IMG/VR virus record: IMGVR_UViG_3300037782_000016
Location: 1 to 36,544 of that record
DNA length: 36,544 nt
Direction: 5' to 3' (one strand)
From: a virus
Taxonomy: Duplodnaviria; Caudoviricetes
The notes under the pieces are model-generated. The model did no database searches and was not told the origin of the DNA. It saw only the letters and a list, made by a program, of their open reading frames with translations. Shown here piece by piece: positions 5,711 through 19,069 of the stretch (positions are counted from its first letter, which is position 1; the number at the start of each line of letters is the position of its first letter). The position numbers and the translations under genes are program-made.

Positions 5711-5757
5711 ATCTAATCTGTTTAAAACGTTGTTTAGCCTTAGCCGTTGTGCTTCAT
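5621..5757 (+). mobile_element. attC-like site, array 1
   Basis: ACGTTGCACAAC, then GGCTAAACCAACATTTT pairing with AAAACGTTGTTTAGCC (one extra C in the left arm), then GTTGTGC at 5746. Confidence 0.75.
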
Positions 5758-6623
5758 TACCTCATAGCCTTTCTAATCTCAGCAACCGCAGTAGGGCTTC
5801 TCATTGCCGTCCAATGGTCTAGCAAGTCATCTTTTACCGTGCTGCTATCCGTGAAGGGTGTCGTGTCTAGTATTTCAACACCGCGTGGTAATACGTCCGT
5901 TGTGCTTCCGTTTCCTAGCCTCCCTTTCCCGTAGTTCTTAGTGTATTTACTCACAATTCCCGTTACCTCATCGCTTTCATTTATGACTACAATGGTCTTT
6001 CGGGCTATTCGATTAATGTCCCTCATATAGCTTCGATCAAAAACATCTTCGTCAACGTCTGGATGAAGCATTACGATGTTTTTAAAGACTTTCACTTTCT
6101 TATCCTCGTCAATGTTCTTTAGCATAGCCTCCAAAACTTGATTTCCCATTGAATGACAGAATAAATTGATTTCCCCTAAACAATCGGCCCTTTCCTCGAT
6201 TAAGTAAGTTACCATTCGATTGAAGATTTGCGCTAGGTTTGCGCCCGTTCTTTTAGCGTCCTGACTATCGTTGTGGTAGGCGTTGATTAACCTACCGATA
6301 CTGGACCAACTTTGCAGAATAAAATGGTCGCTTGGATAAAGCTCCCGAATCTTGTCGGCCATCTTAATTGACTTCTCAAAGGTATTCGCAAAGCCGTGAA
6401 TGAAGATGTTGAGCTTACTACCTGGTTTATCCTTCATAGACTTGTAGATGTCCGTAAACATCGTCTTAGTCGGGTAGTGGTTGATAGTGTTCTGGATTAA
6501 ATGCTCGTAGTCGTTCAGATCATCACCGCACTTTAGCACTTTGAATGATTGGGTTGCTGGCTCGATTCCTTTGCTTACTACTTTCCCGTTAAAGATTGTC
6601 CTATTGGTTAAAATGTGATTCAT
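5757..6623 (-). CDS. Alpha/beta hydrolase (DUF900-like esterase/lipase)
   Basis: IFIHGFAN oxyanion motif, LFCHSMGNQV nucleophile elbow, SWSS, NESD and a C-terminal DH. Confidence 0.85.
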   Translation of the reverse strand: MNHILTNRTIFNGKVVSKGIEPATQSFKVLKCGDDLNDYEHLIQNTINHYPTKTMFTDIYKSMKDKPGSKLNIFIHGFANTFEKSIKMADKIRELYPSDHFILQSWSSIGRLINAYHNDSQDAKRTGANLAQIFNRMVTYLIEERADCLGEINLFCHSMGNQVLEAMLKNIDEDKKVKVFKNIVMLHPDVDEDVFDRSYMRDINRIARKTIVVINESDEVTGIVSKYTKNYGKGRLGNGSTTDVLPRGVEILDTTPFTDSSTVKDDLLDHWTAMRSPTAVAEIRKAMR

Positions 6624-6914: not shown

Positions 6915-7280
6915 CTATTCTTCCTCCATTTCGTTAGCCGCTGCCAGCATTTCGTTGGCTGTTTGCCTATACCTTAACGCTATTTCTTTATAAGCCATAG
7001 CATCATTAACGTCCAAAGCATCATTGGAAAGCTTTTCGCGAATCTTAGATTGTTTAGCTAAAGCGTGTGAAGACAAATAAAGCTCATTAATATCCATGTA
7101 AACCATTGCAACTTCACACTCAGCATCATCGCCATAGCTGCCTACGCTAGTGCCGTCCTCGTTGTACCAATCGCCCTTATCGTCCTTGAAGGCTGTCTTG
7201 CCATCACTACTACGGCTGTCTTTCATTGTCCTTACCTCTCCGTTGTTCAGGCGGTAGGTCTTGTCTAGTTTTAGTTTCAT
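6915..7280 (-). CDS. Hypothetical protein
   Basis: 121-aa ORF coupled to its neighbours. Confidence 0.65.
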   Translation of the reverse strand: MKLKLDKTYRLNNGEVRTMKDSRSSDGKTAFKDDKGDWYNEDGTSVGSYGDDAECEVAMVYMDINELYLSSHALAKQSKIREKLSNDALDVNDAMAYKEIALRYRQTANEMLAAANEMEEE

Positions 7281-7702
7281 TGCTTCTCGTTTAGTTCGTT
7301 AATGTCAATTGCTAGTCCTGATTCGATGAGTCCGAAAACATCGAAGTGCCACTTTAATAGATTTTCTACTTGACAATAAGCCATTTCTAATGGCGAGTCA
7401 ATTTCATGCATCTCGCCATCAAACCCAGCTTCCATTATGGAGTCATCATCATTTATCTGAATGGTTGTCCAATCACTTAAAACATCAATTGGCACAAACC
7501 TCTCTCCCTTATGCTCAATCTCTTTGGTTAGGTCTGATAAGGGGCGTAGGATGGGTTTATAGTCTTCGTACAGTATTTCTCTATTTATAAATCCATTTGT
7601 GCAAGATTTTAAAATTTCAATTCTGTTTCTAAAGCCCCCCTTCAACCCATACGGAAGGTATGGCGCAAGGTCTTTAATCTCTAACTGTCTTTCTGTTTTC
7701 AT
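7277..7702 (-). CDS. Conserved phage hypothetical protein
   Basis: LAPYLPYGLK...KPILRPLSDLTKEI...WHFDVFGLIE. Start moved to ATG 7702 because a promoter lies at 7723-7754. Confidence 0.7.
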   Translation of the reverse strand: MKTERQLEIKDLAPYLPYGLKGGFRNRIEILKSCTNGFINREILYEDYKPILRPLSDLTKEIEHKGERFVPIDVLSDWTTIQINDDDSIMEAGFDGEMHEIDSPLEMAYCQVENLLKWHFDVFGLIESGLAIDINELNEKQ

Positions 7703-7722
7703 ACTCGTAATTTTGGTTTTGT

Positions 7723-7754
7723 CAAATATACAATAAACATTCTTTCGGGGCAAA
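7723..7754 (-). promoter_or_regulatory. Bacteroidota sigmaABfr-type promoter
   Basis: Minus strand TTTG-N20-TATATTTG. Confidence 0.75.
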
Positions 7755-7762
7755 CGTTAACC

Positions 7763-8362
7763 TTATAGCTTTAAAAGTGCCTCTTTTGTTCCCTTCCAAC
7801 TTCCCTTATTCCGCTGAGACCTTAAACGGTTCTCCTGCTTCTGCATAGTGCGGTAAACGTTTTCTAGCTTAGTCAAGCCGTTGGGTATCTCCAGTATTAT
7901 CCTTTCGGCTATGTCCCTGGCTCGTGCGTATTTTAACGCAACTTCCAGCCCTAAATCGATGACTATCTCGCAATCGGAGTCGTCTTTGTTGAAGTAGGCC
8001 ACTTCTAATATTTCCCTTGCCTCGTCATAAATCGCTGCATATTCTTTGTCCTGAACGTAGTCGGTGTGATGCGTTCCCGTTTCGTCTTTCGTGTAATGCG
8101 TTGCCGTTGCGTGGTCGCGCCCAATCAAGGCAGCAATATGACTTGCTGGTAACTTCTCGCAGAATGATACACTCGCACTCGTGAACGCTTGTCGTACCCT
8201 TATTATTGGTCTGTCCCGGACGCTAGACTTCAACATCTCTATGCTTATTCCCTGAGTTTCACAGAGCGTTTCCCTCATTTCCAGAACCGCTTTTAGTTCC
8301 CGAATGTACTTTACGCTCCTATCCTTTGCGTCCTCAATTATTGTTTTTTCTTGCTTTTTCAT
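7763..8362 (-). CDS. DnaA C-terminal-like HTH DNA-binding protein
   Basis: RDRPIIRVRQ...IAALIGRDHATATHY matches the DnaA_C GRDHxTVxH signature. Confidence 0.75.
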   Translation of the reverse strand: MKKQEKTIIEDAKDRSVKYIRELKAVLEMRETLCETQGISIEMLKSSVRDRPIIRVRQAFTSASVSFCEKLPASHIAALIGRDHATATHYTKDETGTHHTDYVQDKEYAAIYDEAREILEVAYFNKDDSDCEIVIDLGLEVALKYARARDIAERIILEIPNGLTKLENVYRTMQKQENRLRSQRNKGSWKGTKEALLKL

Positions 8363-9426: not shown

Positions 9427-9495
9427 TGTTTTAGTCTTTTAAGTTAGTGTAGTAATTTATCAATGTCGGAACTACACATAGCCAAAACGTTATCC
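9360..9495 (+). mobile_element. attC-like site, array 2 #2
   Basis: AATTACCGCTAAC (perfect 13-bp complement of 9183-9195)-AACAC-CTATATGTAATACC ... GGAACTACACATAG-CCAAAAC-GTTATCC. Confidence 0.75.
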
Positions 9496-9822
9496 CTACT
9501 GAAACAAATCAATTTGCCCATCACGACCAAATTTAGGCTGTTTTGGGTTTTCAGTCGAGTAAACGTGTTCCGCTTTTCCGTACATTCCCTTCGCTGTCTT
9601 TTCGGTTTTGAAGAGAAGCCCCTCGTTGTATAGGTCGGTTATCGCCCGTCTAATGCTCGTTATCGGACATTCGTTGATTCCGTAGATTTTCCAAGCCTCT
9701 GATGCTGTTAGGTTCTTTTTCGATCGGAATATCTCCAGCACTTTGTCTCGCTGTCTTTGGGCCTTTCCTTGACTTTCGGCTAAGGTTCTTCCGACTTCCT
9801 TGTTTGTGTTGTAGTAACTCAT
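9496..9822 (-). CDS. Winged-HTH DNA-binding protein
   Basis: VLEIFR...LTASEAW...ITSIRRAITDLYNEGLL. Confidence 0.65.
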   Translation of the reverse strand: MSYYNTNKEVGRTLAESQGKAQRQRDKVLEIFRSKKNLTASEAWKIYGINECPITSIRRAITDLYNEGLLFKTEKTAKGMYGKAEHVYSTENPKQPKFGRDGQIDLFQ

Positions 9823-9865: not shown

Positions 9866-10255
9866 TCATTGGTCTGTTTTTACGCTTATTTTTATGACGC
9901 AATACTTTTCCTTGTAACTTTTCAATTCAGTTAGCAAGTCATGCCCACCTATTGATAAATAGCTATCGTTATAAGTTCCGTAAGTGTATGAAGAATAATT
10001 GTATGATTCAGATGTAAAATCCGCATCAATAGAACCAAACAATTTCTTTAGCCAGCCCTCCTTTATTTCTTGTTCTGTTTTCTTTTCATCAGAAATGTAA
10101 TAACCTACGGACACCTCGGATTCGTACAAATCAAATATCGCTCTAAATTTCTTCACTAAATCAATCCTCTTATAACCGTCAACTAATTTGACAGTCTCGA
10201 AATCGGATAACCAGCTTGACTCAATAAATCCACTAAATGTAAATTCCTTAATCAT
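9866..10255 (-). CDS. Hypothetical protein with its own promoter
   Basis: 129-aa AT-rich ORF with a TATATTTG box just upstream. Confidence 0.7.
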   Translation of the reverse strand: MIKEFTFSGFIESSWLSDFETVKLVDGYKRIDLVKKFRAIFDLYESEVSVGYYISDEKKTEQEIKEGWLKKLFGSIDADFTSESYNYSSYTYGTYNDSYLSIGGHDLLTELKSYKEKYCVIKISVKTDQ

Positions 10256-10278
10256 AACTTGTAATTTGGTTTAGACTT

Positions 10279-10286
10279 CAAATATA
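10279..10286 (-). promoter_or_regulatory. Bacteroidota -7 promoter box
   Basis: TATATTTG on the minus strand, 23 nt before the 10255 ATG. Confidence 0.65.
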
Positions 10287-11446: not shown

Positions 11447-11716
11447 TTAAACTTTCGGCTTCTGCTGCCCTAAATACTTTTCTGTTACCTCCACCAACTC
11501 GCCAAAGGCATCAATTCGCTCAATGGCTGGATCGGGGATTTCAATATTCAGCTCCTTTTCGATTTTCATTGCCGTCTCCAGGATGTCGAGACTGTCCATT
11601 CCGATGTCGCCTTTTAACGTGGACGAGTCGTTATAATCCTCCATATCGGCATCCGACAATCCCATCACTTCTTTGATAACTTCTTTAACTACTTCCCTTG
11701 TGTTTGATTCGCTCAT
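11447..11716 (-). CDS. acpP: Acyl carrier protein
   Basis: Acidic 89-aa protein with DIGMDSLDILETAMKIEKELNIEIPD (DSL phosphopantetheine Ser motif and ACP helix II/III pattern). Confidence 0.9.
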   Translation of the reverse strand: MSESNTREVVKEVIKEVMGLSDADMEDYNDSSTLKGDIGMDSLDILETAMKIEKELNIEIPDPAIERIDAFGELVEVTEKYLGQQKPKV

Positions 11717-11946
11717 AGCTCTATGATTAGATTAATTTCATTACATTTAACCATTGGCATATCAGGATATGAAATTTGAGCATATTCGATTTTTGATACG
11801 GTAACACCGTACTGCTTTTCGTACTTCAAAATTAGACTAGATATATGCTGCTCTAGTTCGCGTTTCTCATTACGCGCCTTTTCAATTTCTTTTTCAAACC
11901 CAATATTGCTTTCTGAAGCCTTATCAGTTGTTTTGTTATTGCTCAT
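11713..11946 (-). CDS. Hypothetical protein
   Basis: 77-aa coupled ORF. Confidence 0.6.
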   Translation of the reverse strand: MSNNKTTDKASESNIGFEKEIEKARNEKRELEQHISSLILKYEKQYGVTVSKIEYAQISYPDMPMVKCNEINLIIEL

Positions 11947-12665
11947 GCCTTTAGTTTTTCGTTCAAAATCTTTGCCGCCATTTCTACCCTAGCGGTTAAT
12001 AGGTCTTTGTCCTCCTGAGGGACTGTAAAGCTTATGTTTGTAATCGCTGGATATTTACTCTCTTTAGGAATCAAAGGTAGCTGCTCAGGCTGTGAAAAGC
12101 TAATCCAAGCGTAAGTGTTCAGGTTGTCCACCATTGCCTCAGCGTAATCAACTACCTCATTGAAGTATTTCCGTTCGACCCCGTGAATGTATAGAGCCAC
12201 ATCATCAACTCCAGCTAGTATCGCATTGCTAACAAGCTGCCAGTAATACTCAGGCTTTTTTTCTTTCAAGTTCTCGTGCGCTATTACTGATTCCGCGCAC
12301 ATATCGCTTAACTCGCAGAATGAACGCAAGGTATAAGGGCTTTTAACATCTGCCACCTCTGTTTCACTTACCATGTCGGGCGCACCGCTCCAGGGTAGTG
12401 TTGGATGTTCGTACCTTTCCTTGTGTACCTCTTTCCACTTAATATCCAAATGCTTTTCAAAGAAAAACAACTCCATTAGGTTACCCCAGCTTGTGGGACG
12501 TGCCGTTGTTTCATTATCCAGTTGGCAGCCTAACTTAGATTCCCAAACTTTTTCCTGAATGTAAGTCTCAAAAGGTTTGCCGGTGTTCTCAATACTGAAC
12601 GCACCCCTACCTTTACTCATTAGCCTGTAAATTTGGCTGCTCGTGAATTTCCCTACCCTACTCAT
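11943..12665 (-). CDS. YqaJ/lambda-exonuclease-like recombination nuclease
   Basis: RVGKFTSS...WGNLME...SGAPD...DVKSP...YYWQL. Confidence 0.85.
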   Translation of the reverse strand: MSRVGKFTSSQIYRLMSKGRGAFSIENTGKPFETYIQEKVWESKLGCQLDNETTARPTSWGNLMELFFFEKHLDIKWKEVHKERYEHPTLPWSGAPDMVSETEVADVKSPYTLRSFCELSDMCAESVIAHENLKEKKPEYYWQLVSNAILAGVDDVALYIHGVERKYFNEVVDYAEAMVDNLNTYAWISFSQPEQLPLIPKESKYPAITNISFTVPQEDKDLLTARVEMAAKILNEKLKA

Positions 12666-13314
12666 TCTCGTATGTTTTTAGTTCTTCCAATGCTTTTGCG
12701 TAGTGGTTTTCCTCTTCCATTCCAATCACTCGCTGAATATGTGCGTAGCGTTTACTCGGGATGTTGGCTTCCACCTCTTCAAATTTCTCTCTCAATTCCT
12801 TTAGCGTTACCACTTTTCGGGTACGGTTAAACGCCATTGTATCCTTTCGGTTCAGATCACGCCCAAACAAAGCCCCAAAATGTTCCGCAGCATCCTTAAT
12901 AGCGTAACTCTTTGCAGCTGGCAATGCTTTCATTACCGCATCTTGCTTGACGGCTGTAAGGTCGCTTGCCGCCTTTCCTTTGTCAGTTTGTATTCCGACC
13001 GCACCTACCCCATCGTGATAGTTCCATTGACCCGTGATTGGGTCTAAGTAGTGAAGTCTTACGGAAACAGTAACCGAATTAAATAGCTGCTGATAGTCCT
13101 TTACCTCAACTCGCCATTGTTGAAATATCCTATCCAGTAAAAACTCAATCTTATCAATCGGGATGTATTTCACTCCCTTAGCGAAAGGGTGCTGTTTGAT
13201 AAACTTCTGTATAGGCGGCTCGTTCGTTATCGCCTTTAATTGGTCATACTTAAACGCCTCTTTAGGGTCTAATTGTAGTTCTTGAATCTTTGGTAAGTTC
13301 TTCTTCTCACTCAT
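12658..13314 (-). CDS. Rad52/Sak-like single-strand annealing protein
   Basis: YIPIDKIEFLLDRIF...DGVG...AKSYAIKDAAEHFG...GRDL, next to the exonuclease. Likely start MSEKK at 13314. Confidence 0.8.
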   Translation of the reverse strand: MSEKKNLPKIQELQLDPKEAFKYDQLKAITNEPPIQKFIKQHPFAKGVKYIPIDKIEFLLDRIFQQWRVEVKDYQQLFNSVTVSVRLHYLDPITGQWNYHDGVGAVGIQTDKGKAASDLTAVKQDAVMKALPAAKSYAIKDAAEHFGALFGRDLNRKDTMAFNRTRKVVTLKELREKFEEVEANIPSKRYAHIQRVIGMEEENHYAKALEELKTYENE

Positions 13315-13799: not shown

Positions 13800-13802
13800 A
13801 AT

Positions 13803-13937
13803 AAACGGTGGCTAACAAAATGTAACACACATAACCCGTCAGCCTTTTAAAAGCGTATGTGTGAGTTTGTAATTCAGTTCTTTTATCGGTGGTCTGTGAT
13901 GGCTACGATGTGTTACACAAACCGTTATGCCCCATTT
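13803..13937 (+). mobile_element. attC-like site, array 3 #1
   Basis: GGTGGCTAAC-AAAA-TGTAACACA ... TGTGTTACA-CAAACC-GTTATGC. Confidence 0.8.
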
Positions 13938-14481: not shown

Positions 14482-14490
14482 ATAATTAAA

Positions 14491-14634
14491 AAACGGGGCA
14501 TAACACTAAATATAAAACATACAGGTGTTTAGCCAAAATTATGCAGTTGTGCCATTAATTAAGTTTGTAGCGTACAGGTTGGCTACTGCTTTCTATTCCT
14601 GTACGTTTCATATTATTTACGTTAGCCACCATTT
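14491..14634 (+). mobile_element. attC-like site, array 3 #2
   Basis: AAACGGGGCATAAC-ACTAA-ATATAAAACATACAGG ... CCTGTACGTTTCATAT-TATTTAC-GTTAGCC. Confidence 0.8.
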
Positions 14635-14799: not shown

Positions 14800-14933
14800 A
14801 AACGGTGGCTAACAAAGTATATAGCACATAGCCTGTTAGCCATTTTTAAAACTATATGCGGTTATTAAATTATTTTCTCTTTTAATTAGGTCTGTGAGTG
14901 GTTACGTGCCATATACAAACCGTTAGCACCAAC
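14800..14933 (+). mobile_element. attC-like site, array 3 #3
   Basis: AAACGGTGGCTAAC-AAA-GTATATAGCACATAGCC ... GGTTACGTGCCATATAC-AAACC-GTTAGCA. Confidence 0.8.
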
Positions 14934-14934
14934 A

Positions 14935-15175: not shown

Positions 15176-15556
15176 TCACAACTCAATCTCAATCTTTCCA
15201 AGACCACCGCAAGTTGAGCAGTCCATCGTTTCAAATATTTCTTCTCCGTAAACGTTATTCCCACCGCCTACAATCGCGCGGCTTCCCGTGAAGTGTTCCG
15301 CGTGTCCGTGTCCGTTGCAGTCCTCGCAGTTAATCAATAGACGTTTTTTCATTGGTTCTCCAGTCCCAATAACCTTCGCGTTTAGGTAATCGGATTCTTC
15401 GCTATCCTGATTCTCTAAGGCTTCGTTTATTTCGGCTAAATCATTAATTCCCATACTTGCAAAAATGTCGATTGCTGATAATTGACTGACGTAAATAGTA
15501 AAGTGGTTGTCGTGCTTGTCGCTTATCTGGTTGAAATCAAACTTGTAAATTTTCAT
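15176..15556 (-). CDS. Protein with DnaJ-type CxxCxGxG zinc finger
   Basis: CEDCNGHG...CSTCGGLG. Confidence 0.7.
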   Translation of the reverse strand: MKIYKFDFNQISDKHDNHFTIYVSQLSAIDIFASMGINDLAEINEALENQDSEESDYLNAKVIGTGEPMKKRLLINCEDCNGHGHAEHFTGSRAIVGGGNNVYGEEIFETMDCSTCGGLGKIEIEL

Positions 15557-15576
15557 ACTCTAATTTTTTGGTTGAC

Positions 15577-15607
15577 CAAAGATAATACTGTTTTGGTAAA
15601 TTGCAAA
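15577..15607 (-). promoter_or_regulatory. Bacteroidota sigmaABfr-type promoter
   Basis: Consensus TTTG-N19-TATCTTTG on the minus strand. Confidence 0.8.
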
Positions 15608-15613
15608 CGTTTT

Positions 15614-16300
15614 TCACGGTAATGCGTCAAATATGGTTGATTGCCTTACGTTTTGTTTTCGAGAAACTTCAAGTGCTGTTTCTAGTATCGTTCTACCAGC
15701 TTCGTAGTCTACCAGGTTTCGAGCTATTTTGTCTTTTCTTTGATTCCCTTTGTATTTTTTAAAATCGTAGTCGTGAAATGTGCATAAATTCTGAAACTCA
15801 TTTTTACCTGTTCCTACTTTGCAATATCTATTTGAAATTTTATTTGGTAGGTTAAAGTTTGTCCAGTAATAATGCCTATCCCTTTTTTTGGGAGAAAACA
15901 TAGGTTCGTAATACGATATTACATTTTCAACACAGTATTTGCCTTTGAAAAAATTATTTAAAAATATAATCTCTTGCCATAACTTCATATCTGGATAACT
16001 GGCTTTCGACTGTCTTTCCCCTTCACCGGTGTTAGTTTTTCTAAGCCTTGAATGTGTCGGACATGGAGGGCTACTCCAAATAAAATCAAACTTTTGGTAA
16101 TGGTCCAGTAGGTATTGGTGTGCATCTTCGATCAAAACTTTATCGTTCGGGAATCTCTCTTGATACAACCTAGCTAATTCCGGATCTAATTCTACCGCAG
16201 TAACATCAATTTTAATACCTGCTTCTTTACCTACCTCATCCCACTTGTAACGATTGCCGCCTAAACAAGCGTATAGGTTTAATATTTTGTACTCTCTCAT
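15614..16300 (-). CDS. DNA (cytosine-5) methyltransferase
   Basis: LNLYACLGG (motif I), AVELD, WSSPPCPTHS (motif IV PC), VENV (motif VI). Confidence 0.88.
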   Translation of the reverse strand: MREYKILNLYACLGGNRYKWDEVGKEAGIKIDVTAVELDPELARLYQERFPNDKVLIEDAHQYLLDHYQKFDFIWSSPPCPTHSRLRKTNTGEGERQSKASYPDMKLWQEIIFLNNFFKGKYCVENVISYYEPMFSPKKRDRHYYWTNFNLPNKISNRYCKVGTGKNEFQNLCTFHDYDFKKYKGNQRKDKIARNLVDYEAGRTILETALEVSRKQNVRQSTIFDALP

Positions 16301-17073
16301 TCCCCTAAATGTTCGTCAATCAACTTAACAACTTCGGGGCTTACCTTTTCCCCGTGGGCGTTTATCGCGTCCGCTTGTTTTCGTATGGCGTTTATTTCCG
16401 TGCGCTTCATATTCGGTAGCTCTCGTTTTAAAAAATCAAGATACTTATTCTCGGTCATTATTGAGCGATGCCGATTTACCGCTTTTTTTGCCGATTCTTT
16501 TTCAATAGCCTTTTTAGTGGCGCAAACCGAAACACTCTCAGCCAGTTTTAACGCCTGCTCCTTTGGTATTTCCCGAATCAAACTAGCGTAGTCCTCGTCC
16601 GCTTTCCGTTCGTTTTCTCGGTGCTTTGCTTCCATAAGTAATTCCCTTTCGTGCATCATCCATTCGCTAATTACCTCCAGGTTTAAATCCCGGTACGTTT
16701 TCTGAATGTCCTTATACTTTCCCTTTCGCCCTTTTTTTAGGACCATTAGAATCATATCAATCGGGTCGTACTGAAATTCCTCGAGAATATCATCAACGAT
16801 TAACTCCCTTCGATCATCACCCATTTCAATCTTCAAAGCCAGCGCGGCCTTTCCTAAAGCTATGCTTATCGCTGTTCTACATTCCGAATAACCGTTATCG
16901 CGCTGTTTGATAACCGAACGCATAGCAGGACTGTGTACCAGTTCTTCCGTTGAGTTTGCTGGCACTAACTCCCCGTACTTTGCCCTCTCAGCTAAACTAG
17001 AAGTTTTTGTATGCAGGGTTATCTTTGTGTTGGTTGTGGAATTTCTCGAAATTTGATTGTTGTCCTTTTCCAT
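16297..17073 (-). CDS. Hypothetical replication-associated protein (possible helicase loader)
   Basis: Immediately downstream of the initiator-like gene; function inferred from position only. True start may be downstream. Confidence 0.5.
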   Translation of the reverse strand: MEKDNNQISRNSTTNTKITLHTKTSSLAERAKYGELVPANSTEELVHSPAMRSVIKQRDNGYSECRTAISIALGKAALALKIEMGDDRRELIVDDILEEFQYDPIDMILMVLKKGRKGKYKDIQKTYRDLNLEVISEWMMHERELLMEAKHRENERKADEDYASLIREIPKEQALKLAESVSVCATKKAIEKESAKKAVNRHRSIMTENKYLDFLKRELPNMKRTEINAIRKQADAINAHGEKVSPEVVKLIDEHLGE

Positions 17074-17764
17074 TGTTTTCTTTTTTAGTCCAATGACAAA
17101 CGTTACCCCTTACGGTGGCTTGCCAGTCTTTTATTTTCCTTTCAGGATTAATTGTTTTCCAGTCGTTACCTTTCCAAGCCTCATACCTTCCTCTGACCTT
17201 AGTGTCGTCCAAGTTTAAATTCTGCTTCACTCCCTGCTCCATTGCGTAGTTGTGAAATTCCTCGTAGGTAGGTTCTTTGACTTTCGGGTTTCTTAAATTG
17301 CGCTTTGTCGGTTTTTTACTTTCAACTTCATTATCATCTTTACTTTCATTGTCATCTTCATCTTCATAGTCAATGTCAGTGTTTTGCCCCCCTTTTGCTT
17401 TTGGTTTGCTATCGTTTTGCTCTTGATTTGATTTAGAGTTTGCGGCTTTCCTCCTTATTTGACTAATCTCATTCTCCTTTACAAATCGCCTGCAAGTAAA
17501 TTCAATAAAACCTTTCTCTTCCTTTATTTCCGCGATTTCGTTGTAAATTAAGTCGTCCAATATTTCACGCATTTTTTCGGGCGAACAACGCCACAAATTT
17601 TGCAGGCTTTTTGCTGGCATTTTGATTGTGTTTTGCTTCCCTTTTGTCCAAAGTTTGAAAACAATTCTCATCCAAGCCGCCTCACTTTCTAATGATAATA
17701 CGTTGCAGTCGCGCTCCCAGTCTCCTATATAAATGGGTATATTTGGTAGATTCTTTTTACTCAT
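16997..17764 (-). CDS. Phage replication initiator-like protein (YdaU/DUF1376-like)
   Basis: N-terminal PIYIGDWERD HTH domain, low-complexity linker, C-terminal PTYEEF...W...IKDWQATVR...W domain. Confidence 0.7.
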   Translation of the reverse strand: MSKKNLPNIPIYIGDWERDCNVLSLESEAAWMRIVFKLWTKGKQNTIKMPAKSLQNLWRCSPEKMREILDDLIYNEIAEIKEEKGFIEFTCRRFVKENEISQIRRKAANSKSNQEQNDSKPKAKGGQNTDIDYEDEDDNESKDDNEVESKKPTKRNLRNPKVKEPTYEEFHNYAMEQGVKQNLNLDDTKVRGRYEAWKGNDWKTINPERKIKDWQATVRGNVCHWTKKENNGKGQQSNFEKFHNQHKDNPAYKNF

Positions 17765-18218
17765 AGCCCTCTATTTTTAGCTCCCCGCCAGTTAGGACGT
17801 GATATAAATTCTGCACTTGATGAATGTATCGTATGTGAGGGTATTTTACTGGTGTAAAAGTGTCTTCGTACAGCTCGTCATTATAACACATTTCGTGGTC
17901 AAGCACCATATGCCACATTTCAAATACATCATCCTGAAATGATATTTTAACAACCCTATTGTATTCAGGGCGGCCATAGTCTTTAACGTTTTGAACCTTA
18001 ATTTGTAAAAAACCTCCATTGAACCCCATTTTTTCTAGCCATTCATCGTCCAAAGGTATTAGCTCGGCCGCGTTCCATTCTTCGCCAGCATAAGTAATGT
18101 AATCTTCTGTTTCAATGTATTCCCCAACAGAATCAGTCCCAAACGACTTTACTTTTTGAACTACTGAGGCTATTTTAATTAAGTTTCCAAGCCTCAAATC
18201 CTTTATTTGTAATTCCAT
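17757..18218 (-). CDS. Phage hypothetical protein, paralog of 4541-4927
   Basis: Start MELQIKDLRLGNLI at 18218; IPLDDEWLEKMGF...YIHQVQNLYHVLTGGELK. Confidence 0.7.
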   Translation of the reverse strand: MELQIKDLRLGNLIKIASVVQKVKSFGTDSVGEYIETEDYITYAGEEWNAAELIPLDDEWLEKMGFNGGFLQIKVQNVKDYGRPEYNRVVKISFQDDVFEMWHMVLDHEMCYNDELYEDTFTPVKYPHIRYIHQVQNLYHVLTGGELKIEGYE

Positions 18219-18230
18219 AATGTAGTGTAA

Positions 18231-18318
18231 TAAAAAAGCCTTTCCCCTTTCGCCCCGCACGGCTACTCAGAAAAAGGCTTTTCGATAAAAATTTCGTTCG
18301 ATTCGTGCGGGAATCTTA
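18231..18318 (-). promoter_or_regulatory. Structured 5' leader (attenuator/pseudoknot-like) of the replication operon
   Basis: 10-bp inverted repeat 18234-18243/18273-18282 ending in a U run, crossed by an 8-bp inverted repeat 18254-18261/18304-18311. Confidence 0.6.
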
Positions 18319-18322
18319 AAGG

Positions 18323-18352
18323 CAAATATAAAGGGATTTATTTAAAATGCAA
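18323..18352 (-). promoter_or_regulatory. Bacteroidota-type promoter, unit 3
   Basis: TTG-N19-TATATTTG. Confidence 0.75.
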
Positions 18353-18359
18353 TAGGTGT

Positions 18360-18393
18360 AAAAAATAAGAGGATGTGCGACTACACATCCTCT
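18360..18393 (-). terminator. Intrinsic terminator
   Basis: Perfect 10-bp stem AGAGGATGTG/CACATCCTCT, 6-nt loop, followed by TATTTTTT on the minus strand. Confidence 0.85.
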
Positions 18394-18433
18394 CTGGACT
18401 ATCAAAAAAAACAATATGAAAAGTAATTTTCAC
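18360..18433 (-). ncRNA. Putative small RNA 2 (about 75 nt)
   Basis: Lies between promoter 18437-18466 and terminator 18360-18393; 5' hairpin UGAAAA/UUUUCA, then U-rich AUUGUUUUUUUUGAUAG. Confidence 0.6.
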
Positions 18434-18436
18434 TAG

Positions 18437-18466
18437 CAAATATACATCGCTTTCGGAAAAATGCAA
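18437..18466 (-). promoter_or_regulatory. Bacteroidota-type promoter, unit 2
   Basis: TTG-N19-TATATTTG. Confidence 0.75.
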
Positions 18467-18470
18467 GGGT

Positions 18471-18501
18471 AAAAAAAGAAAGACGGCGCAAACCGTCTCT
18501 C
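18471..18501 (-). terminator. Intrinsic terminator
   Basis: GAGAGACGG-TTTGCG-CCGTCTTTC followed by T7 on the minus strand. Confidence 0.8.
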
Positions 18502-18550
18502 TCCAACCAAAAAATACAAGTATGAGTGCGCAGAACGCGCTCAGGACTGT
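18471..18550 (-). ncRNA. Putative small RNA 1 (about 80 nt)
   Basis: Lies between the -7 box 18555-18562 and terminator 18471-18501; 5' hairpin UGAGCGCG/CGCACUCA overlapping CAUACUUGUAUUUUUUGGUUG. Confidence 0.62.
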
Positions 18551-18554
18551 GAAG

Positions 18555-18562
18555 CAAATATA
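18555..18562 (-). promoter_or_regulatory. Bacteroidota -7 box, unit 1
   Basis: TATATTTG; weak -33 (TTAG at a 19-nt spacing). Confidence 0.65.
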
Positions 18563-18607
18563 AGACGGTTATTCGTAATTCCTAACTATGTTGATAAGTC
18601 GGGCTGA

Positions 18608-19069
18608 TTAAACAATATACAAATCTTCCCGATCCGTGATTCGGCAGTCCAAGTGCAGCCAGCTTCTATTTTTTCCAGCCGTTTTCCTATAATCCTCAAC
18701 CGTTGTTATCCCTAATTTCCTTAATTCAGCGTAATTTTCGCGCACCTTATAGAACATCTCATCGCTTCTAAGGTATTTCCCCCGATGCTTTACTTTAATG
18801 TCAATAGCGCGCCCATATCGGTGTTGGCTATTCAAAGTCTCTGTTATATCGGTGTCGTAGTCTCTAAACCCCGATTCCGTGTACGCACCACCCCACAACC
18901 AGTCGTTAACCACGATATAAGCCCTCTCATCGTCTGAAAATAGTTTTTTGAGGTATTCTAGTATTGGCATCAATCGAGGGTCTAATAATTCAATTGCAGC
19001 GTTTCCACGTCTTTTGTAAGTGTTGATGCTGACTAACTCTCTCAGATCGAAGTTCTCGCTAATTTTCAT
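18608..19069 (-). CDS. Endolysin, peptidase M15 family
   Basis: SENFDLREL, SGFR, SQHRYGRAIDI and WLHLD zinc-ligand motifs. Confidence 0.88.
   Translation of the reverse strand: MKISENFDLRELVSINTYKRRGNAAIELLDPRLMPILEYLKKLFSDDERAYIVVNDWLWGGAYTESGFRDYDTDITETLNSQHRYGRAIDIKVKHRGKYLRSDEMFYKVRENYAELRKLGITTVEDYRKTAGKNRSWLHLDCRITDREDLYIV

Follow-up and report, generated by a model that had tools for sequence, protein, structure and literature searches.

The phage genome described here probably encodes two small RNAs, designated U1 and U2, that would base-pair across start codons in early mRNAs of the same phage and in doing so likely block their translation. As judged from the sequence, the predicted target regulon of U1 is made up of early genes, and the predicted target of U2 is a DUF6633-like gene beside the replication initiator. 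A preliminary description of this DNA had proposed trans-acting antisense RNAs that cover start codons and whose exposed parts are reverse complements of translation-start regions. The proposal is supported by target matches and by covariation of seed and leader in one relative, and the start regions could be resolved to the early and replication genes of the phage itself. The self-controlling phage antisense RNAs known so far mostly act on one target or one leader; here one short RNA appears to address dispersed early genes by way of a leader tag that they have in common and that varies from lineage to lineage.

The window, meaning the entire stretch of 36,544 nucleotides that was analyzed, is a complete phage genome of 36.4 kb, with an overlap of 127 nt between its ends; according to its record it has direct terminal repeats and is 100% complete. 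It contains approximately 61 minus-strand genes, and PHROGs names were obtained for a terminase, portal, protease, capsid, tail, endolysin, methyltransferases, exonuclease, SSB, resolvase and acyl carrier protein. The nearest cultured matches are to phages of Flavobacterium, Leeuwenhoekiella and Polaribacter at 28–37% identity. Since these matches and the promoter type both point to the Bacteroidota, the host is likely a member of this phylum. In PHROGs and Pfam scans of 39, 35 and 39 protein sequences, sets that overlap and include 16 plus-strand ORFs, nothing was recognized as an integrase, CI-type repressor, antirepressor or partition protein, which agrees with the earlier remark that no repressor had been recognized. 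Two HTH-type proteins are encoded, one at 9496–9822 (winged-helix) and one at 7763–8362. The locus of interest is the largest gene-free gap of the genome (389 nt), with the endolysin gene on one side and the early operon on the other.

Two minus-strand units had been described in this gap, and the sequences quoted for them were found at the positions claimed. They may be considered in terms of the following features:

18555..18562, minus strand: P1, the -7 promoter box TATATTTG of U1 (consensus TAnnTTTG), with TACCTTTG at the equivalent place in the related phage B
18470..18550, minus strand: U1, predicted small RNA of ~80 nt with a 5' hairpin bearing a GUUCU loop, a single-stranded anti-start seed and an intrinsic terminator
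18501..18527, minus strand: U1 seed, CAU and a U-rich stretch, complementary to the leader family AACCAAAA..GTATG of the window phage
18470..18503, minus strand: U1 terminator, 12-bp stem and U-tract
18437..18444, minus strand: P2, the -7 promoter box TATATTTG of U2, with TTG 22 nt upstream
18360..18432, minus strand: U2, predicted small RNA of ~72 nt with the core TCATA-TTG-TTTTTTG common to U1 and U2
18395..18424, minus strand: U2 seed, complementary to the start region of gene 16297–17073
18360..18394, minus strand: U2 terminator, 12-bp stem and U-tract

The -7 consensus of Bacteroidota promoters is given as TAnnTTTG (PMC7366714, PMC6847099), and the extents of both RNAs were set by placing +1 at 4–5 nt downstream of the box, where it is expected according to PMC6847099. 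The TATATTTG promoter, the CAU with its U-rich stretch and the strong terminator that had been ascribed to both units were confirmed from the promoter boxes and from folding against 200 shuffles. The claimed length of 75–80 nt holds for U1 (about 80 nt), whereas U2 is slightly short at about 72 nt. Similarly, a 5' hairpin ending in CAU had been claimed for both units; it is good in U1, but its counterpart in U2 is merely a weak 5-bp A-U stem. Because the two share the TCATA-TTG-TTTTTTG core, U2 is likely paralogous to U1.

The fold energies of U1 and U2 were better than those of 200/200 shuffles, with z-scores of -3.98 and -5.08 that are owed mostly to the 12-bp stems of the terminators. Since folding is similar on the opposite strand (z = -4.8), the strand of the units is given by the promoter and the U-tract rather than by the z-score. 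An alternative named in the preliminary description, that the region is read from the plus strand as micropeptides (MSAQNALRTVKQI and MKSNFH), is highly improbable. The A-rich sequence upstream of both ATGs would suit it but is there by construction, whereas the plus strand has no TAnnTTTG from 17746 to 18700, genes on the minus strand take up 95% of the genome, and the equivalent frame in phage B encodes an unrelated peptide (MNRAERPS...).

A detector requiring a promoter and a terminator within 45–130 nt, which was written with U1 and U2 already in view, identified three units on the two strands of the 36.5-kb genome, all of them at this locus. When applied to 30 codon-block shuffled genomes, it returned 0–2 units each and never two with a CAU and U-rich stretch. 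Contigs from two other sequencing runs span 17993–18436 and 18371–18523 with zero differences; this part of the locus (17993–18523) is thus not an assembly artefact, and the lack of variants means that the contigs offer no within-population covariation.

The TATATTTG box occurs three times in series on the minus strand, at 18555–62, 18437–44 and 18323–30. The last of these is a third promoter that is absent from the preliminary description, and the unit that follows it is not an anti-start RNA:

18219..18330, minus strand: P3 and third unit, a structured leader of the early/replication operon whose 5' loop CCCGCACG is complementary to the loop sequence CGTGCGGG of a terminator-like hairpin

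A small 5' hairpin with a loop complementary over 6–8 nt to that of a terminator-like hairpin further downstream was observed in four phages, two of them cultured (P12002L and snusmum6-1). The loops occupy similar positions in all four (nt 11–12 and 60–62), and their letters have changed in step. The motif, which produced no Rfam hit, is likely a loop-loop attenuator as judged from this pattern. It is located as follows:

Window, 18219–18330, minus strand: loop-loop leader motif
L001 (phage B), 5076–5186: loop-loop leader motif
L107 (P12002L), 34477, minus strand: loop-loop leader motif
L109 (snusmum6-1), 13649, plus strand: loop-loop leader motif

With three promoter-terminator units in series ahead of the early operon, the third of which is attenuator-like, U1 and U2 might also be by-products of tandem promoters and terminators that gate this operon by means of short terminated transcripts extended by antitermination. 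Their mirror sequences would then be inert remnants of inverted leader copies, and the same terminators would end the lysis transcript. The terminated pR' transcript of an Stx phage is reportedly a precedent for such gating. This explanation is unlikely, as it supposes that an inverted copy of each phage's own leader tag arrived independently at one and the same unpaired position of a conserved scaffold and leaves the placement of the best pairing sites at start codons unexplained.

Those sites are as follows for U1, for which the antisense reading is held with good confidence:

15552..15584, minus strand: predicted U1 target 1, TATCTTTG promoter and leader of the Zn-finger gene 15176–15556; duplex -26.3 kcal/mol, the best coding-strand site
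7698..7730, minus strand: predicted U1 target 2, TATATTTG promoter and leader of gene 7277–7702 (PHROG 10841); duplex -22.6 kcal/mol, the second-best site
12659..12684, minus strand: predicted U1 target 3, start region of the exonuclease-like gene 11943–12665 (PHROG 4763/149), which is without a promoter of its own; duplex -21.8 kcal/mol, the third-best site
10251..10286, minus strand: predicted, weaker U1 target 4, TATATTTG promoter and leader of gene 9866–10255; duplex -18.7 kcal/mol, outside the genome-wide top 10

In a scan of every position, the best three of the 10 coding-strand sites listed for U1 are start regions, while the chance expectation is that about 7–8% of sites fall there. 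When the U1 seed was compared with 60 start regions of the phage, those of 15556, 12665 and 7702 led, and the best-of-60 score was equalled by 5/200 and 4/200 shuffles under two schemes. Three early genes have a TATmTTTG promoter of their own (15584, 10286 and 7730). In all three of their leaders AACCAAA stands ahead of the ATG, and it is mirrored by U1. For the sum over three promoter-proximal leaders, which were chosen after the match had been seen, 0/2000 shuffles were as good, both for U1 of the window phage and for U1 of phage B. The coding strand carries nine copies of AACCAAAA, of which six are in the leaders of five genes. The 15556 protein has a zinc-finger-like CxxCxGxG end and no clear family; the duplex of U1 with its leader lies partly upstream of the predicted +1, and counted from +1 the net binding is -16.2 kcal/mol. 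Several of the mismatches to perfect pairing among the targets of U1 and U2 are A-to-G changes in the target and are tolerated by G-U pairing. Among 207 start regions from three cultured Bacteroidota phages, none fell below -19.2 kcal/mol with U1 or U2 of the window phage. Separately, the GUUCU loop of U1 (18531–18536) is able to pair with CAGAA just past the ATG of gene 7702 (7686–7702, minus strand), a pairing that was not seen at the other targets of U1.

A relative allowed the seed and the leaders to be compared between phages. In what follows, A is the window phage and B is this one relative, which is known from contigs L001, L099 and L100. L001 was met in an endolysin search at 56% identity. 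L099 was met through a family search with the U2 target, and its first 40 nt are the last 40 nt of L001; L100, which has the same metagenome name as L001, is identical to part of L099. The B homolog of U1 has the position, fold and GUUCU loop of its counterpart in A. All 14 consensus pairs of the scaffold are kept, four of them by double changes, and the CAU in B sits 4 nt past the stem.

The seed and the leaders of B both read ATCAAAAAC, as opposed to AACCAAAA in A. All four coding-strand copies of ATCAAAAAC in L099 precede an ATG, and a fifth copy precedes a small divergent gene beside U1; the sequence is absent from the coding strand of A. ATCAAAA was found in 6/20 leaders of B versus 0/40 early leaders of A (p = 0.0008), and AACCAAA alone fails to separate the leaders of A from those of B (6/40 versus 1/20, p = 0.41). 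The Zn-finger gene is homologous in the two phages, with a leader that bears the tag of its own phage in each. In a cross test, A-U1 scored -26.3, -18.7 and -22.6 kcal/mol on the promoter leaders of A and -13.8, -13.4 and -10.6 kcal/mol on leaders of B. For B-U1, the values were -17.9, -17.4 and -15.1 kcal/mol on leaders of B and -15.8, -10.8 and -15.7 kcal/mol on those of A, an own-leader margin that is small for two of the three leaders (about 2 kcal/mol). Over 40 early starts of A and 20 starts of B, the own-leader preference had a Mann-Whitney p of 4.5e-6. Leaders of Bacteroidota are A-rich in general (PMC6847099), and the test controls for this. With the cost of unfolding included, net binding is predicted at -14 to -22 kcal/mol for the five pairs of A, -12 to -17 kcal/mol for three pairs of B and -8.5 to -11.8 kcal/mol for three cross-phage pairs. 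The best four of the 10 sites listed for B-U1 in L099 are start regions. From the covariation check that had been suggested for related phages, the U1 seed and the leader tag differ in step in one relative, which is a single contrast between two phages.

The cross test also bears on the possibility that the RNAs are real and act mainly on host mRNAs, such as those of receptor or defence genes, with the matches to the phage itself being secondary. The leaders of Bacteroidota hosts share the A-richness noted above, and FopS, a host RNA, represses host susC starts in a like manner (PMC11697453). With thousands of host genes some matches are to be expected, a rate that the 207 foreign leaders bound only loosely. 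The seed, however, follows the leader tag of each phage, and a phage that silences its host would be selected to avoid matching its own starts; a mainly host-directed role is thus considered quite unlikely.

It is very unlikely that the tag instead serves a phage protein (the winged-helix protein of 9496–9822, for example) as a DNA operator of which U1 merely holds a reversed copy. Three copies of the tag do lie at the +1 of early promoters, and HTH-type proteins are encoded. Yet the tag is also found ahead of internal genes that have no promoter and is tied, on the coding strand, to an ATG; it is no palindrome, and its variation is of a kind that suits G-U pairing.

Several other features of phage B were recorded. 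A second promoter-terminator unit (L001 4986–5062) begins with B's own leader tag and has no ATG; no convincing target for it was found in the 20 kb examined, and it may be the remnant of a gene or act as a decoy for U1. The interval between the endolysin gene and U1 of B holds a 94-aa orphan gene with its own promoter (L001 4481–4765, minus strand) that is absent from the window, and 13 nt of its leader are complementary to B-U1. The early regions of both phages include an acyl carrier protein gene (window 11447–11716, minus strand, PHROG 5934; L099 5215–5457) and a gene for a DUF900 alpha/beta hydrolase (window 5757–6623).

For U2, a single target is predicted:

17064..17093, minus strand: predicted U2 target, start region of the DUF6633-like gene 16297–17073; duplex -28.1 kcal/mol

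The gene is nested in the 3' end of a replication-initiator-like gene (DUF1376, below cut-off). The next-best of the 60 start regions scored -17.4 kcal/mol and the next-best coding-strand site anywhere -22.7 kcal/mol, such that the top site of the every-position scan is a start region with a gap of 5.4 kcal/mol. None of 200 shuffles in either of two schemes was as good in the best-of-60 comparison. The target protein matched DUF6633 clusters with a score of 0.95, and since its recognition value is low the assignment is a lead only. The position of its start is uncertain, the database call of the protein being 222 aa; the ATG is conserved in B. No U2 counterpart was found in phage B, so the match is without covariation support, and the leader of the DUF6633-like gene in B does not have GGACTA, the stretch that pairs with U2. 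An antisense role for U2 is, on balance, slightly favored.

Were U1 and U2 to act as self-directed antisense RNAs, they would be transcribed from host-type promoters and would occlude the A-rich leader and AUG on which ribosomes of Bacteroidota rely instead of a Shine-Dalgarno sequence. Start-codon pairing has precedent in the phylum, since GibS and FopS of Bacteroides are reported to repress in this way, by pairing around start codons (PMC7366714, PMC11697453). The most likely purpose would be a delay switch. As one promoter class is common to the small RNAs and their targets, both would begin to be transcribed by the host polymerase on entry; the structured, stable small RNAs would then accumulate and, at a later stage of infection, turn down the early and replication genes. 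Read-through from the lysis operon would add U1 in the window phage, because no terminator was found from the endolysin gene to U1. The same pool of small RNAs would also damp an incoming phage of the same tag. A lytic timer is rated somewhat above a role in immunity or a carrier state because no integrase or partition gene was recognized, and the two are compatible. It is plausible that the small RNAs would substitute for a repressor, with the qualification that the genome has no recognized integrase either and does encode the winged-helix protein.

A tentative and rather doubtful extension of this reading is a system of control and immunity that is built of RNA only. A lineage-specific leader tag and its small-RNA reader would drift together and define immunity groups, and the tandem locus would be a bank of swappable readers, with U1 for the regulon, U2 for replication and the ATG-less, tag-bearing unit of B as a possible decoy. 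Such a system would take the role of lambda CI and its operator without a protein, perhaps in a non-integrated carrier state. If self-directed control by U1 and U2 is true, a compact phage without a recognized repressor can time its early genes and exclude its kin. The RNAs and leaders would also be natural orthogonal pairs for translational control in Bacteroidota, where designs based on the Shine-Dalgarno sequence are not applicable.

Some parallels are found among known systems. The sar RNA of P22, a phage antisense RNA of ~68 nt, pairs with the antirepressor mRNA and blocks translation initiation (PMC12197685). The predicted likeness is that of a small phage RNA blocking translation initiation on an mRNA of its own phage; however, sar has one target inside a protein-repressor circuit, whereas U1 would have several tag-sharing targets at a distance of 3–11 kb. 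The predicted targets of U1 and U2 are the Zn-finger gene, the exonuclease-like gene, two genes of unknown function and the DUF6633-like gene, and no antirepressor was recognized. The c4 RNA of P1 and P7 (Rfam RF01695) is a phage RNA that curbs replication or early functions of its own phage by pairing in trans. Immunity RNAs of the c4 and P4 CI kind have complementary sites on either side, maintain a prophage or plasmid state and confer immunity. The CI RNA of P4 is described as processed from the leader that it controls, with transcription termination by way of seqA and seqC (PMC4825925). Here again an RNA and not a protein restrains the phage's own functions in trans, as is predicted for U1 and U2; in contrast to both, U1 and U2 have promoters and terminators of their own and would cover the start codons of separate genes, with best sites 1.3–11 kb away. 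The C4 covariance model had no match at E<=10 in the genome and was not among the 7 weak Rfam hits, a weak test given that no control genome reached the cut-off.

GibS and FopS of Bacteroides thetaiotaomicron (PMC7366714, PMC11697453; Rfam RF04319) have a Bacteroidota promoter, a single-stranded seed, an intrinsic terminator, paralogous copies and start-codon pairing without a Shine-Dalgarno sequence, all of which are predicted for U1 and U2. This includes the order seen in FopS-type RNAs, in which a canonical Bacteroidota promoter is followed by a single-stranded seed and then the intrinsic terminator. Unlike U1 and U2, they belong to the host, have metabolic targets there and keep a conserved R1 seed, whereas the U1 seed changes between phages; in addition, U1 has a 5' hairpin that is not part of the FopS consensus. 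Binding by RbpB is a further trait of FopS, alongside its repression of host susC mRNAs. The FopS covariance model had no match at E<=10 in the genome, with a control over cut-off in one of 14 genomes. Lastly, STnc6030 of the Salmonella prophage BTP1 is reported as a cis-antisense RNA of 786 nt that lies over late genes and acts to exclude its own phage and not a relative (PMC7067206). Such exclusion resembles what is proposed here, although STnc6030 as reported is not a short trans-acting anti-start RNA.

Eight scans of viral, two of metagenome and two of genome collections, by pattern or by protein, identified no third relative. In the pattern scans of viral contigs, the matches were 6/6 not such units in one scan, 8/9 chance and one phage B in a second, and 25/26 chance and one phage B in a third; another scan had phage B as its sole match, and yet another returned 20 matches, namely phage B and 19 unrelated sequences with no U1-like unit against a matched leader. 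With the endolysin protein, two loci were found, of which L002 lacks the units. The 336-aa tail protein led to 115 matches, of which 80 were kept, and is full-length in B only. The resolvase identified seven loci, six of them not B and without the units, and none in the genome collection. The DUF6633-like gene was found in metagenomes zero times with a single sequence and once with an alignment, and was likewise not found in the genome collection. A blastn search of the locus against cultured phages gave no match. The Rfam search that had been called for found no known family at gathering score in the window, its 7 weak hits at E<=10 all being far below cut-offs. No description of such RNAs in Bacteroidota phages was found in the literature searched, which was mostly without subscription journals and excluded supplements, where phage transcriptome tables could hold such RNAs.

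A unit with CAU and a U-rich stretch in the cultured Polaribacter phage P12002L (L107 14222, plus strand) was considered and rejected, for no start stood out among the 82 annotated (best -17.8 to -17.9 kcal/mol, no gap). The promoter-terminator detector also gives units with CAU and a U-rich stretch at L113 5939 and L122 13378, both on the plus strand. Within the window, the early-region gaps at 13800–13935, 14482–14621, 14844–14934 and 9427–9495 (minus strand) start, directly past the stop codon, with a similar (T/A)AACG(G/T)TT..G motif that may be the signature of a mobile cassette or repeat. A recurring promoter-terminator unit of 77–83 nt that contains GCTGTTTCCGC was observed in the unrelated phage contigs L078, L079, L080, L084, L090, L091 and L097 and is a candidate for another small-RNA family.
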